From contig JBBSMS010000002.1 of NCBI GenBank assembly GCA_038233055.1, positions 17,468-81,467 on the forward strand: a DNA stretch of 64,000 bases, in the 5' to 3' direction. Both the position numbers and the translations under genes were made by a program. Position 1 is the first letter of the stretch; the number at the start of each line of letters is the position of its first letter. The stretch is from Nitriliruptorales bacterium. GTDB lineage: Bacteria > Actinomycetota > Nitriliruptoria > Nitriliruptorales > Nitriliruptoraceae. A model generated the notes under the pieces. It saw only the letters and a program-made list of their open reading frames with translations, searched no databases and was not told where the DNA came from. Below, one piece after another: positions 8,584 to 57,694 of the stretch.

Positions 8584-8637
8584 CGTCGAATGTGCGCATC
8601 GCCCCGGAATCCCGGGGTGGGGCGCACACTCGACGTG
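8584..8637. repeat. Intergenic palindromic (REP-like) element, family 2
   Basis: CGTCGA-A-TGTGCGC...GCGCACA-C-TCGACG hairpin; the 16-mer GCGCACACTCGACGTG recurs at 49609-49624. Confidence 0.6.
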
Positions 8638-27696: not shown

Positions 27697-29610
27697 GTGC
27701 CCACCAACGATCATGCCCCCGCGGCCGACATCGACACGACGTCGCCCGACGTCACCGCCACCTCCGATTCCGATCGATCCTCCGATTCCTCGTCGTCCGG
27801 GTCCGACGCGTCGTCCGGGTCCGACGCGTCGTCCCGCTCCGGCGGGCGCCGCCGTCGTGGCCGTCGAGGCGGCCGTGGACGTGGCGGGTCCGAAGCTGGA
27901 TCGGGGTCCGACACCACCTCGTCATCCGATGACGAGCAGTCCTCGTCCTCCACGCGCCGGGGGGGCCGCCGTGGCGGTCGCCGCGGCTCCGGCGGCGGTC
28001 GTGGGTCGAAGGGGTCGTCGGGTGGTGGGTCGAAGAAAGGCACCCGCAACGGATCCAGTTCTGGCGGTGGCTCCATGGACGGTTCGTCGGGCTCCGGTTC
28101 GGGCGGCTCCGGTTCGTCCCGGTCGTCGGGCTCCGGGTCGTCGGGCTCCGGGTCGTCCGGCGCCGCGTCCTCTGGTTCCGGGTCGTCCCGCGACGGCCGC
28201 GGCGCCGGCACGCGCATGGCCGCCAAGAAGCAGCGTCGCTCCGGTGGTCGCCACGTGGCGGGGATCTCCGAGGACCTTCGGCAGGCCCTGCGCAGTGGTC
28301 CGCCCAAGACCATGCTCGTGTCGGCCGACGGCGATCGCACCCAGATCGCCGTGCTCGAGGAACGCACCCTGGTCGAACACCACGTGACCAACGTCGCCGA
28401 CAAGACCCTGGTCGGCAACATCTACATGGCCCGGGTCCAGAACGTCCTTCCGGGCATGGAGGCCGCGTTCCTGGACATCGGGACCGGGCGCAACGGGGTG
28501 CTGTATGCGGGCGAGGTGCTCTACGACGACCTCGACGTCGAGGAGGGCTCGTCGCCGCGGATCGAGGACGCCCTGTCGCCGGGCCAGAAGGTGCTGGTCC
28601 AGGTCACCAAGGACGCGATGGGCACCAAGGGCCCGCGGTTGACCATGCAGTTGTCGCTGGCCGGTCGATACACGGTGCTGGCCCCCAACTCGGACGTGTT
28701 CGGGATCTCGCGCAAACTGACCGACAAGGAACGCGACCGCCTGCGCACCGTCGTCAAGAAGGTCAAGCCGTCCGAGCACGGGGTCATCGTGCGGACCGCG
28801 GCCGAGGACGCCCCCGCCGAACAGCTCGAGGCGGACCTGTCTCGGCTCCTGCGCGTGTGGGCCACCATCGAGGAGAAGGCCAGCACGGCCAAGGCCCTGA
28901 CGCCGGTGTACGAGGAGCCCCCGCTGCACGTGAAGCTGGTGCGGGACAGCTTCGGGGCCGACTACGAACACGCCATCATCGATGACGCCGGCATCCACGA
29001 CGCGGTCGTGGAGTACCTCGGCGAGGTCACGCCCACCGACCGCTCCAGCGATGCCGAGAAGGTCCAGCTCTACGGTGCCGCACGGTGGGAGCGCGAGCAC
29101 CCCGACGCGGCCGAGGACGACGAACGGCCCCGCTTCGCCGACCTGTTCGACGCCTACAACGTGACCGAACAGCTCCGCAAGGCGTTGTCGCGCAAGGTCT
29201 GGCTGCCGTCCGGTGGCTACCTCATCGTCGAGGTCACCGAGGCGATGAAGGTCATCGACGTCAACACCGGCAAGTACACCGGTGGGAAGCGCTCCAACCT
29301 CGAGGAGGTCGTGTTCAAGACCAACCTCGAGGCTGCCGAGGAGATCGTGCGCCAACTCCGCCTCCGAGACATGGGCGGCATCATCATCATCGACTTCATC
29401 GACATGCTCAAGAAGGCCAACCAGGACCAGGTCGTCGCCACGCTGAAGCGCGAACTGCTGCGCGACCGCACCAAGACCCGCGTGTCCGACGTGTCCCGCC
29501 TTGGCCTGGTGCAGATGACCCGCAAGAACGTGTCACACGGGCTGATCGAGTCCTTCGGCCACCGCTGCACCACCTGCGACGGCACCGGCTGGACCACCGA
29601 GTTCGACTGA
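27697..29610 (+). CDS. rne: Ribonuclease E/G family
   Basis: S1 domain (GNIY.ARV.NVLPGMEAAF.DIG), IDVNTG, DMGGIIIIDFIDM and C..C.G.G; Ser/Gly/Arg-rich N-terminal extension with an 18-bp tandem repeat at 27799-27834. Confidence 0.95.
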   Translation: MPTNDHAPAADIDTTSPDVTATSDSDRSSDSSSSGSDASSGSDASSRSGGRRRRGRRGGRGRGGSEAGSGSDTTSSSDDEQSSSSTRRGGRRGGRRGSGGGRGSKGSSGGGSKKGTRNGSSSGGGSMDGSSGSGSGGSGSSRSSGSGSSGSGSSGAASSGSGSSRDGRGAGTRMAAKKQRRSGGRHVAGISEDLRQALRSGPPKTMLVSADGDRTQIAVLEERTLVEHHVTNVADKTLVGNIYMARVQNVLPGMEAAFLDIGTGRNGVLYAGEVLYDDLDVEEGSSPRIEDALSPGQKVLVQVTKDAMGTKGPRLTMQLSLAGRYTVLAPNSDVFGISRKLTDKERDRLRTVVKKVKPSEHGVIVRTAAEDAPAEQLEADLSRLLRVWATIEEKASTAKALTPVYEEPPLHVKLVRDSFGADYEHAIIDDAGIHDAVVEYLGEVTPTDRSSDAEKVQLYGAARWEREHPDAAEDDERPRFADLFDAYNVTEQLRKALSRKVWLPSGGYLIVEVTEAMKVIDVNTGKYTGGKRSNLEEVVFKTNLEAAEEIVRQLRLRDMGGIIIIDFIDMLKKANQDQVVATLKRELLRDRTKTRVSDVSRLGLVQMTRKNVSHGLIESFGHRCTTCDGTGWTTEFD

Positions 29611-29666
29611 CCGGGACCCCACCTCCCACCCTGCCCCACCTCGAAACGCACCCCCCACCCCGTCGA

Positions 29667-29789
29667 GTGGGCGTGGAACCGGCAACCACCTGCCGGATCG
29701 ACACCCGTTGGGCGGCCGCGGGTGGTCATCATCGTCCAGTCCCGTTGAGTGGGTGTGGAATCGGCAGCGGCATGCCGGATCGACGCCCG
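29667..29789. repeat. Two 41-bp palindromic repeats (family 1) separated by a 41-bp spacer
   Basis: 29667-29707 GTGGGCGTGGAACCGGCAACCACCTGCCGGATCGACACCCG and 29749-29789 GTGGGTGTGGAATCGGCAGCGGCATGCCGGATCGACGCCCG. Confidence 0.85.
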
Positions 29790-29833
29790 GCTTGCCCGCC
29801 GCGGGGGCCCGCCGGTCCCCGGACCTCGCAGGA

Positions 29834-30754
29834 TCAGGCCGTCTTGGCCAGGGCTCGGCTGACCTCGGCCACGAGGTCCAGTGGTTCCTCGTGCAGTCGC
29901 CGCCAGGTCACCCACACGATCTCCCAGCCAACTCCGCGCAGTTCACGCCAGCGCACGCGATCACGTTCAAACGCGCCTTGTGACGAGTGGAAGGCGTACC
30001 CGTCGCACTCCACGGCGACGCGGCCCCCCACCACGAGGTCGACGGACAGTCGACCGCCGCGTGTGGCCACCACCACGGGCCCTGACGAGACCTCCAGTCC
30101 CTGGGTGAGCAGCAGACGTCGACACCGGTGTTCCAGGATCGAGTCGGGATTGCCGGCACCAACCTCCGCGATGGCCGTGCGGACATTCGCGGCGCCGCGA
30201 ACGGTTGGCCGGCGTTCGAGTTGACCTGTCACCTCGTCGACCGTCAGCAGGCGCCGCTGCCTGGCCGCGAGCAGCAACCCCTCGACCCTCCACCTCGGGA
30301 CGGAACCTGCAACGTCGAGGATCGACCTGGCCGCCGTCGTCACTCGCAGCCCGTCCACCACGGTCCGGTCGCGGCCGTCGAGTCGGCGTGAGCGGTGTCG
30401 GAGGACGCCGGTGGGGGCGTCGGCCGACCTCCCATGGGGGATGACCACATGGATGCGGCAATCGTGTTCCGGTTGGTCGCGCAGGTCGAGCAGGTCGAGC
30501 GCCGTGTCGTGGCTGAGCAACCCGTCCGGCCGGAAGACCGCCAACGCCGCATGCTGTCGAGTCGTCGGGGTGGTGGGGCACCCGGCGAGCAACCAGGCTC
30601 CTGCACCCAGGGACGACCACCCATCGCGCTCCGCCCGGGCTCGGAACGACCGTTCGGGAACGCCGTGCTCCCGCGCGTTGTCGAGCGTGACGACGCCACC
30701 TCGACGGGCCGCCGAGGCGAACACTGCGGGCCATCCGCCCATCTCGTTCGACAT
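29834..30754 (-). CDS. AbiEi-like N-terminal / DUF559 (Vsr-like PD-(D/E)XK) endonuclease-domain protein
   Basis: AARRGGVVT...G and LSH.TA..L; C-terminal VDLVV..RVAVECDG.AFH....FERD..R..L...GW....VTW. Confidence 0.88.
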   Translation of the reverse strand: MSNEMGGWPAVFASAARRGGVVTLDNAREHGVPERSFRARAERDGWSSLGAGAWLLAGCPTTPTTRQHAALAVFRPDGLLSHDTALDLLDLRDQPEHDCRIHVVIPHGRSADAPTGVLRHRSRRLDGRDRTVVDGLRVTTAARSILDVAGSVPRWRVEGLLLAARQRRLLTVDEVTGQLERRPTVRGAANVRTAIAEVGAGNPDSILEHRCRRLLLTQGLEVSSGPVVVATRGGRLSVDLVVGGRVAVECDGYAFHSSQGAFERDRVRWRELRGVGWEIVWVTWRRLHEEPLDLVAEVSRALAKTA

Positions 30755-30901
30755 GACCACGACCATGCCCTCGGATCGACGAGGCGAGCAGACCCATCAT
30801 CGTCGTTGTGGATGGCCTGCAGCGGCCACGACCGGCGACCACCGTCAGCACCGGCCGCGCCCACGTCCTGTCGAATCCGCCGATCCTGCAGAACCTGCCG
30901 C

Positions 30902-31027
30902 CTGGGCGTGGAATCGGCAGGATGTTGCAGGATCGACACCCGCTCGGGGTGGGTGGGGGAAGGTTGGTCGCGCGGGTGCCCGTTGGGTGGGCGTGGAATC
31001 GGCTGGATGTTGCCGGATCGACACCCG
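30902..31027. repeat. Two 41-bp palindromic repeats (family 1) separated by a 44-bp spacer
   Basis: 30902-30942 CTGGGCGTGGAATCGGCAGGATGTTGCAGGATCGACACCCG and 30987-31027 GTGGGCGTGGAATCGGCTGGATGTTGCCGGATCGACACCCG, each followed by CTCGGGGTGGGTGGG. Confidence 0.85.
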
Positions 31028-31107
31028 CTCGGGGTGGGTGGGGCGCCAGGGGAGGTGCGGGGGCGCCGGGGGGGGGGGGCGGCGGTGCGGGGTGTTCGGG
31101 GGAGGGG

Positions 31108-31536
31108 TCAGTCGAGTTCGTCGGCTTCGACGAAGGGGATCTCGTCGGGCTCCTCGACGACCTCGGGGTCGTCGTCGGCGCCGCCCATGACCATCAGGAG
31201 GGCGCCCAACAGCGAGATGTTCTTGGCGGCGTGGACGAGTTGGGCCTGCTTGGCCTGCTCGTCGTCGGCCTCGGCCGGGTTGTGGCCCAGTGCGGTGGCC
31301 GGCACGAGGTTGGCGGCCAGCGCGAAGGCCGACAGCTTCGGGAAGATGCCGAGTGCCATCGTCGCGCCAGCCACCGCGTTGGTCACGTGGTGTGCGGTCT
31401 CCAGGGTGCTCGGTTCGGGCAGCCCGGCGTCGTCGGCCACGGCCGCCACGTACCCCCGGTTCTGCAGGCCGGTCGCGCCGGACTGGATGAAGACGGTGGA
31501 GAGGGCCATGCGGCCGACGGTGGTCAGGAAGGACAT
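31108..31536 (-). CDS. DoxX-family membrane protein
   Basis: GRMALSTVFIQSG; ALAANLVPATALGH; KNISLLGALL. Confidence 0.85.
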   Translation of the reverse strand: MSFLTTVGRMALSTVFIQSGATGLQNRGYVAAVADDAGLPEPSTLETAHHVTNAVAGATMALGIFPKLSAFALAANLVPATALGHNPAEADDEQAKQAQLVHAAKNISLLGALLMVMGGADDDPEVVEEPDEIPFVEADELD

Positions 31537-49526: not shown

Positions 49527-49572
49527 CCCGGACACGAACGCCGAGAACCACCACCGGCCATGGTCCCAGCCA

Positions 49573-49624
49573 TCGAGTGTGCGGATCCGCCCGACATCCG
49601 GGGCCAATGCGCACACTCGACGTG
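49573..49624. repeat. Intergenic palindromic (REP-like) element, family 2
   Basis: TCGAGTGTGCG...GCGCACACTCGA hairpin between pyrB and pyrC; shares a 16-mer with 8622-8637. Confidence 0.6.
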
Positions 49625-57486: not shown

Positions 57487-57654
57487 TCCGCGGATGGCCC
57501 CATCACGCGTTGTCCGCCAGCCTGCCTCGCCACCCGTCGTCCGCCAGCCTGCCCCGTGGACGCGCCCCCGGTGCAGCTCCGTCACGTCGCGAGGTGTGAG
57601 CCGGATCGGCCGCAGGTGGCCGGGATCCCGAACGGCCGGGTCTGGCGTGGCCGG

Positions 57655-57694
57655 GTGGGAGTGGGATCGGCGGTATCTGGCCGGAATCACGCCC
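57655..57694. repeat. Solo copy of the family 1 palindromic repeat
   Basis: GTGGGAGTGGGATCGGCGGTATCTGGCCGGAATCACGCCC aligns with the copies at 29667-31027. Confidence 0.65.

Follow-up and report, generated by a model that had tools for sequence, protein, structure and literature searches.

Why should a solitary nuclease gene sit between two pairs of long palindromes? We address this question for a 64,000-nt stretch of DNA from a Nitriliruptorales bacterium (contig JBBSMS010000002.1 of assembly GCA_038233055.1; the whole stretch is hereafter the "window," and all window positions refer to it), in which a 1497-bp segment (29611..31107) lies between two convergent stop codons and consists, in order, of two repeats, one gene, and two further repeats. 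The best explanation for this segment is that it is one of six cognate gene–repeat pairs in its genome, each comprising a single-copy nuclease gene and its own family of 38–80-bp palindromes that resemble repetitive extragenic palindromic (REP) sequences.

The four repeats of the segment (family A) share a 38-bp core and a common, forward-strand orientation, at 29669..29706 (52.3 bits, E 4e-16), 29751..29788 (48.2 bits), 30904..30941 (53.9 bits), and 30989..31026 (55.5 bits); overall, our covariance model of the family, R1, scores them at 48–55 bits (E 1e-14 to 3e-17). Their start-to-start distances are 82 and 85 bp, and the right-hand pair is an 85-bp tandem duplication (96% identity over 56 nt). 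The palindrome around the core reaches ~5 bp further on each side (cgagt...actcg), and the exact repeat motif has only four occurrences across the window. The framed gene lies on the reverse strand (29834..30766; 310 aa), and the repeat nearest upstream of its start is 137 nt away. No other open reading frame (ORF) was found in the segment and no AbiEii (DUF1814) toxin gene adjoins it. The original prediction, made from the letters of the window alone, had described four like-oriented copies, two per side of one gene with an intact Vsr-like nuclease motif, without an AbiEii partner and between convergent rne and doxX genes, and in each of these respects it was correct.

The 310-aa protein has a single Pfam match above cut-off, REase_MTES_1575 (PF18741; 40.6 bits, cut-off 38.2), while a match to AbiEi_4 (E 0.014) falls below its cut-off. 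Five residues (D243, E253, D255, H260, and D269) are invariant across 55 homologues, and with these homologues AlphaFold returned a model with a predicted local distance difference test score (pLDDT) of 91.6. In Foldseek searches with this model, residues 1 to ~195 match the AbiEi antitoxin 6Y8Q (E 6.5e-8, template modeling [TM] score 0.65) and Rv2827c (1ZEL), and the C-terminal ~100 residues match the catalytic domain of I-Bth0305I (3R3P; TM 0.77 over 98 residues), with weaker matches to R2 retrotransposon proteins, TnsA, and a DUF559 protein (PDB 3HRL). The protein thus models as an AbiEi-type winged-helix DNA-binding module fused to a Vsr/DUF559-type PD-(D/E)xK nuclease whose catalytic residues are intact. 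G+C content at third codon positions (GC3) is 0.80 in this gene, compared with a genome mean of 0.91 ± 0.03, and translation possibly starts 12 nt further downstream, at MSNEMGGW.

Family A extends well beyond the segment. In the host genome (3.76 Mb, 71% GC, 366 contigs, 97.9% complete; the window is on contig C2), nhmmer and R1 together locate about 50 copies (range about 43–55) at about 35 sites, with a consensus that is a near-perfect 38-bp palindrome (GGGCGTGATTCCGGCCACATGTGGCCGGAATCACGCCC). Repeat counts rest on nhmmer and covariance models; a permissive regular expression for the repeat was dropped, as it matched 8206 loci vs 15199 raw matches in shuffled sequence. Nearly all copies are intergenic, and their placement is skewed: convergent gaps hold 44% of copies vs 17% of intergenic bp, and divergent gaps 8% of copies vs 28% of intergenic bp. 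Relative to genes, copies face both ways, and many sites are tandem pairs, 57–116 bp apart, with locus-specific spacers; the spacers of these solo doublets are unlike those beside the gene. The majority of copies are distant from any such nuclease gene. One solo copy lies within the window itself, 27 kb from the segment (57657..57694, forward strand; 48.7 bits), beside a degenerate partial unit (57602..57627; 17.3 bits). A search for a Y1_Tnp/RAYT transposase (PF01797; RAYT, REP-associated tyrosine transposase) in this 97.9%-complete genome found none, while control profiles matched.

The same arrangement recurs with other genes of the genome. Further paralogues of the nuclease are present on contigs C4, C16, C43, and C124 (tblastn), and a sixth gene, on C93, was found with a DUF559 profile. 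The six are 25–46% identical to one another, and all six carry their own distinct repeat family beside the gene, five of them closely framed on both sides, with one to two copies per side at five paralogues. Family A (GGGCGT...ACGCCC) belongs to the gene in the window and is not enriched beside the other five. Family B (GCGTGCGCG...CGCGCACGC; about 15–20 copies) accompanies the C4 gene, family C (CGTCGAGTGTGCGCATC...GATCAGCACACTCGACG; 38 to over 60 copies) the C124 gene, family D (about 80 nt, GATGTGAGTT...CACATC; about 13–17 copies) the C16 gene, and family E (GGGTGCA...GCACCC; 5–6 copies) the C43 gene. Repeats within each family are ~76–80% identical, and of the five families covered by our genome-wide search (A–E), four are clearly dispersed. 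The smallest is family E, of which four copies flank the gene and one to two lie elsewhere; its paralogue (G000:C43:12805-13688) gives a tblastn match in two frames (pieces 19–149 and 145–310) and is probably a frameshifted pseudogene. The C93 paralogue (337 aa; L001 760-1773) has four to five tandem 60-nt repeats upstream (L001 396-676), whereas downstream a second, opposite-strand gene (L001 1867-2553) comes before the two copies on that side (L001 2605-2736), so that this frame holds two genes. De novo clustering of the genome's long palindromes yields only families A and C, i.e., there is no large orphan palindrome family, and no genome examined carries two similar copies of the nuclease gene. 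Two family C copies, each a 52-bp palindrome (CGTCGAGTG...CACTCGACG), fall inside the window at 8584-8635 and 49571-49622, with their cognate nuclease gene on another contig (C124:1269-2198).

Is this layout peculiar to one genome? Taking 41 homologue loci from the host genome, its relatives, and metagenome contigs, we aligned each gene's two 450-bp flanks locally and took the best score, with 300 random genes of the host genome as a control (mean 12.6, 99th percentile 19.0). The flank-to-flank repeat score exceeded the control 99th percentile at 32 of 41 loci (78%) vs 1% of controls, and these loci have one to five palindromes per side, with a period of 59–72 bp and a sequence that varies by locus. 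The four closest homologues in a large protein collection (56–66% identity) have repeats on both sides, and all four are on 1.2–1.5-kb contigs that end in repeats; such cassette contigs are probably lost at binning. Two of them lie directly after doxX, as here, with proteins 62–66% identical to the window protein and related repeats (core CCGGCCACATG.GGCCG), and the other two have unrelated repeat families, one with a different neighbor. Family C repeats also frame the orthologues of the family C gene in G002 (61%) and in G031 (47%), a member of a different family within the order, and the family D layout is preserved in G002, G004, and G005. A search of genome contigs for related loci with the window protein returned no match. 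In another genus, the cassette of a homologue (G012:C22) carries a perfect 40-nt direct duplication at both edges (L040 718-757 and 1889-1928) that corresponds to the 3' end of the upstream host gene, TGA included; its sequence has the look of a long target-site duplication left by a recent insertion.

The genes on either side of the segment allow its presence or absence to be read precisely. To the left is rne, of the RNase E/G family (27697..29610, forward strand; PF10150, E 1.4e-92), whose 3' end aligns with that of the closest relative, G005, as far as the stop codon, and to the right is a gene for a DoxX-like membrane protein (31108..31536, reverse strand; PF07681, E 6.2e-11); the two converge on the framed gene, and their stop codons form the edges of the segment. 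In G005, whose DoxX orthologue is 86% identical, the segment is absent and the two stops are 10 bp apart (L026 5184-5199), i.e., the empty site that the original prediction had proposed to look for exists. The corresponding gap in G004 is 64 bp and holds a perfect, unrelated hairpin (19-bp stem; L027 5131-5172), and that in G002 is 102 bp and holds a single family C repeat (L028 5263-5302); this convergent gap is a recurrent palindrome site. More distant lineages also carry the cassette at this doxX site, which fits either an old resident that was cleanly lost or repeated site-specific insertion. The family A repeats themselves are patchy and essentially confined to the genus, with R1 matches (counted on both strands) numbering 95 here vs 39, 6, 4, 0, and 0 in the five congeners and next to none elsewhere. 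Family A is almost absent from the genomes with a verified empty site (4, 0, and 0 matches vs 95 here). The doxX locus is unassembled in G001 (39 matches) and G003, which are thus uninformative on the cassette, as is G005 at the solo-copy site (window 57657), where a different degenerate hairpin is found. Separately, we observed that the N-terminal ~190 aa of the RNase E/G protein (window 27697-28300) are of low complexity, with abundant Ser, Gly, and Arg.

The families also have features in common at the DNA level. A central CATG is shared by families A, B, and C and CGGCCACATGTGGCCG by A and C, with differing outer arms, which suggests, at the level of sequence, a common palindrome core with family-specific arms. 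Genome-wide, repeats in families A, B, and C lie between C-rich DNA (skew -0.21 to -0.31 over the 50 bp upstream) and G-rich DNA (+0.19 to +0.38 over the 50 bp downstream), whereas control intergenic DNA has a GC skew of 0. The edges of the segment follow the same pattern, C-rich on the left (29611-29668) and G-rich on the right (31027-31107); insertion at the tip of existing hairpins is one possibility for its origin. The G-rich side of repeats often has G-quadruplex-like runs (e.g., GGGGTGGGTGGGG), and in the window a run of 12–13 G (31070-31082) lies just before the doxX stop and could be prone to slippage. Family C covaries (score 0.202 vs 0.135 ± 0.010 in shuffles, with 0 of 500 shuffles reaching it), four inner pairs swapping between CG and GC, though one inherited event may explain much of this signal.

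We hypothesize, with about even confidence for and against and from sequence comparison, that the AbiEi–Vsr fusion nuclease, an enzyme unrelated to RAYTs, drives a partnership analogous in function to REP/RAYT, a reading that all of the comparative evidence gathered would fit. Specifically, the protein, probably as a dimer, would recognize its own palindrome through the winged-helix module; the nuclease domain would nick or cut at or near the palindrome; and repair or replication of the break would copy, move, or homogenize it. The outcome would be that one resident gene maintains a population of repeats, and the copies beside the gene may double as its own binding or regulatory sites, like the inverted repeats of AbiEi promoters. 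More tentatively, AbiEi–Vsr fusions may be dedicated to replicating or maintaining REP-like palindromes in high-GC Gram-positives, as a second, independently evolved partnership beside that of RAYTs and REPINs (paired REP sequences), with specificity set by the winged helix and several orthogonal pairs per genome (six here). A REP/RAYT-like selfish system was one of two options in the original prediction. What stood of it are the dispersed extragenic family, the framed paralogues, the recurring layout, the lack of a Y1 transposase, and the empty site; what did not stand is an association of this one family with DUF559 paralogues at large, as family A is not enriched at the other paralogues, each of which has its own family, and most copies are far from any of them.

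A number of observations weigh against this partnership. Folded as single-stranded DNA (ssDNA), the four window copies do no better than shuffles (z -1.14 to +0.68), and compensatory change is lacking in family A (79.5% of cells paired vs 80.3% in shuffles). Its inner arms (GGAAY vs GATCG) are not complementary, and the "nested palindrome" of the original prediction overstated the symmetry. Given that family A has poor hairpins and no covariation, yet family C covaries, the form of the recognized DNA is ambiguous. A target-site duplication was looked for at the window cassette and none was found. Protein and repeat similarity show no overall correlation (Mantel-type test, rho 0.04, not significant), a null result that we attribute to repeats diverging too fast and to one extracted "unit" that is a host-gene duplication. 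Genes and repeats also come apart: about 22 family A sites are present in G001, where the doxX locus is unassembled, and no orthologue of the family C gene was found at E <= 1e-30 in G005 (51 family C matches at >=26 sites; assembly 87% complete) or G008 (88 matches at >=44 sites; assembly 63% complete), so that repeats can outlast the gene or be assembled without it. Conversely, G031 has the family C gene with only its two flanking repeats; dispersal is therefore not obligatory, and the gene is not always joined by scattered copies.

Other processes could generate the same patterns. In the main rival reading, the whole cassette, gene plus terminal palindromes, would be mobile in the manner of a homing endonuclease or transposon, with solo repeats being miniature derivatives or the footprints left after gene loss (e.g., via recombination between the flanking direct repeats). 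Presence and absence precisely between two stop codons would follow from this, as would the occupation of the same doxX site in lineages with 62–66% identical proteins, the perfect 40-nt host-gene-end duplication that bounds the G012 cassette, the match of the nuclease fold to a homing endonuclease and TnsA, and the cassette without dispersed copies in G031. We nonetheless consider it rather unlikely, as repeats number in the tens while no genome has a similar second gene copy (paralogues are <=46% identical), ~150 insertion-and-loss events that never left such a copy seem unlikely, and the spacers of solo doublets do not resemble gene-side spacers. An improbable alternative is that the AbiEi-type module uses the palindromes as operators or decoy sites, the nuclease having its role elsewhere (e.g., in defense or repair) and the gene co-evolving with repeats that an unrelated process spreads. 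AbiEi and Rv2827c do regulate their own expression via inverted repeats (PMC7319586), the AbiEi match covers the N-terminal 195 residues, the gene has repeats 137 nt upstream of its start, and the half-sites of family A vary independently, as expected for duplex DNA recognized by a protein. Against this, tandem sets also lie downstream of the stop codon, and the preference of copies for convergent ends, together with their avoidance of promoter-containing divergent gaps, is unlike a regulon; the genome, moreover, offers no other candidate mobilizing enzyme (RAYT) and the gene no toxin partner.

Two further explanations fare worse. The original prediction had also raised structured flanking RNAs, i.e., processed repeat–spacer transcripts that serve the nuclease as guides or antitoxins, for which the repeat–spacer–repeat arrangement flanking the gene on each side and the compensatory changes in family C could be cited. 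An Rfam scan of the segment, however, gave no match (only a sub-threshold nadA), family A lacks covariation and its window copies fold like shuffles, spacers are locus-specific, the pair on the right is simply a tandem duplication, and copies take both orientations relative to genes; we therefore regard an RNA role as very improbable and this part of the prediction as unsupported. It is hardly credible that the association is a coincidence in which generic REP-like elements gather in dispensable DNA around a horizontally acquired gene. The atypical codon composition of the gene (GC3 0.80 vs 0.91) and the distance of most family A copies from any such gene agree with coincidence, but six paralogues each framed by a different cognate family, and framing at 78% of homologue loci vs 1% of controls, do not.

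The origin and persistence of REP-like repeats in genomes without a RAYT is an open question, and this genome, with six nuclease paralogues, a repeat family for each, and no RAYT, is a clean natural experiment. If the nuclease acts on its palindrome, it would provide a new way to make and maintain dispersed repeats, a function for the very numerous "DUF559 / AbiEi domain" proteins, and a set of orthogonal modules for recognizing long DNA sites. On the practical side, such cassettes disrupt short-read assembly, and metagenome-assembled genomes probably under-represent them.

How do these pairs compare with known systems? Full-text literature searches returned no description of this nuclease–palindrome pairing. 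A CRISPR array was rejected on the repeats, there being only two copies per side, 66–96% identical, and the repeat also standing alone at ~30 other sites. With the AbiE type IV toxin–antitoxin systems (6Y8Q, 1ZEL; PMC7319586), whose AbiEi proteins bind their own promoters at inverted repeats, the protein shares the N-terminal two-domain AbiEi fold; here, however, no AbiEii nucleotidyltransferase toxin is adjacent, the C-terminus is a nuclease, and repeats occur on both sides and genome-wide. A toxin–antitoxin reading was likewise rejected, the neighbors being RNase E/G and DoxX and the segment having no other ORF. The protein falls within the DUF559/Vsr-like family (PF04480, PF18741), with a profile match above cut-off and invariant catalytic residues. 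I-Bth0305I is an EDxHD/Vsr-like homing endonuclease (PDB 3R3P; PMC3239194), and with it and DUF559 proteins (3HRL) there is a common catalytic fold, a D...ExD...H...D motif, and presence or absence at a precise site, with an empty allele in G005. Unlike that of I-Bth0305I, the gene here is free-standing between genes, outside any intron or intein, and the repeats that frame it also occur alone. The nearest published observation is one table row in which DUF559 proteins are over-represented among predicted inversion targets (odds ratio 14.3; PMC9881135), as one would anticipate were such genes situated between palindromes.

The closest parallels are among REP sequences. A survey of REPs reports that the CGTC-tagged super-family seems to have no transposase dedicated to it (PMC3733652), and like the repeats described here it is found in genomes without an associated RAYT; the family C consensus, too, opens with CGTC. 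In our repeats, however, CGTC is in a paired stem rather than an unpaired head and the stems are far longer. That survey was without Actinobacteria, and we do not claim membership. The REP/REPIN–RAYT systems of Proteobacteria (REPtrons; PMC2817692, PMC3116915, PMC5581495) differ in their enzyme, a Y1 HUH transposase where we find an AbiEi-like winged helix with a Vsr-type PD-(D/E)xK nuclease, and in their repeats, which are short imperfect hairpins with a GTAG head that are recognized as ssDNA, whereas the palindromes here are longer (38–80 bp) and lack such a head, and the copies flanking the gene are direct rather than inverted. Their organization is nevertheless held in common: one gene per repeat family, framed by a palindrome that is also scattered extragenically in tens of copies; several gene–repeat pairs per genome; a repeat sequence that shifts with the gene between lineages; and repeats that are biased to gene 3' ends and patchy among close relatives.

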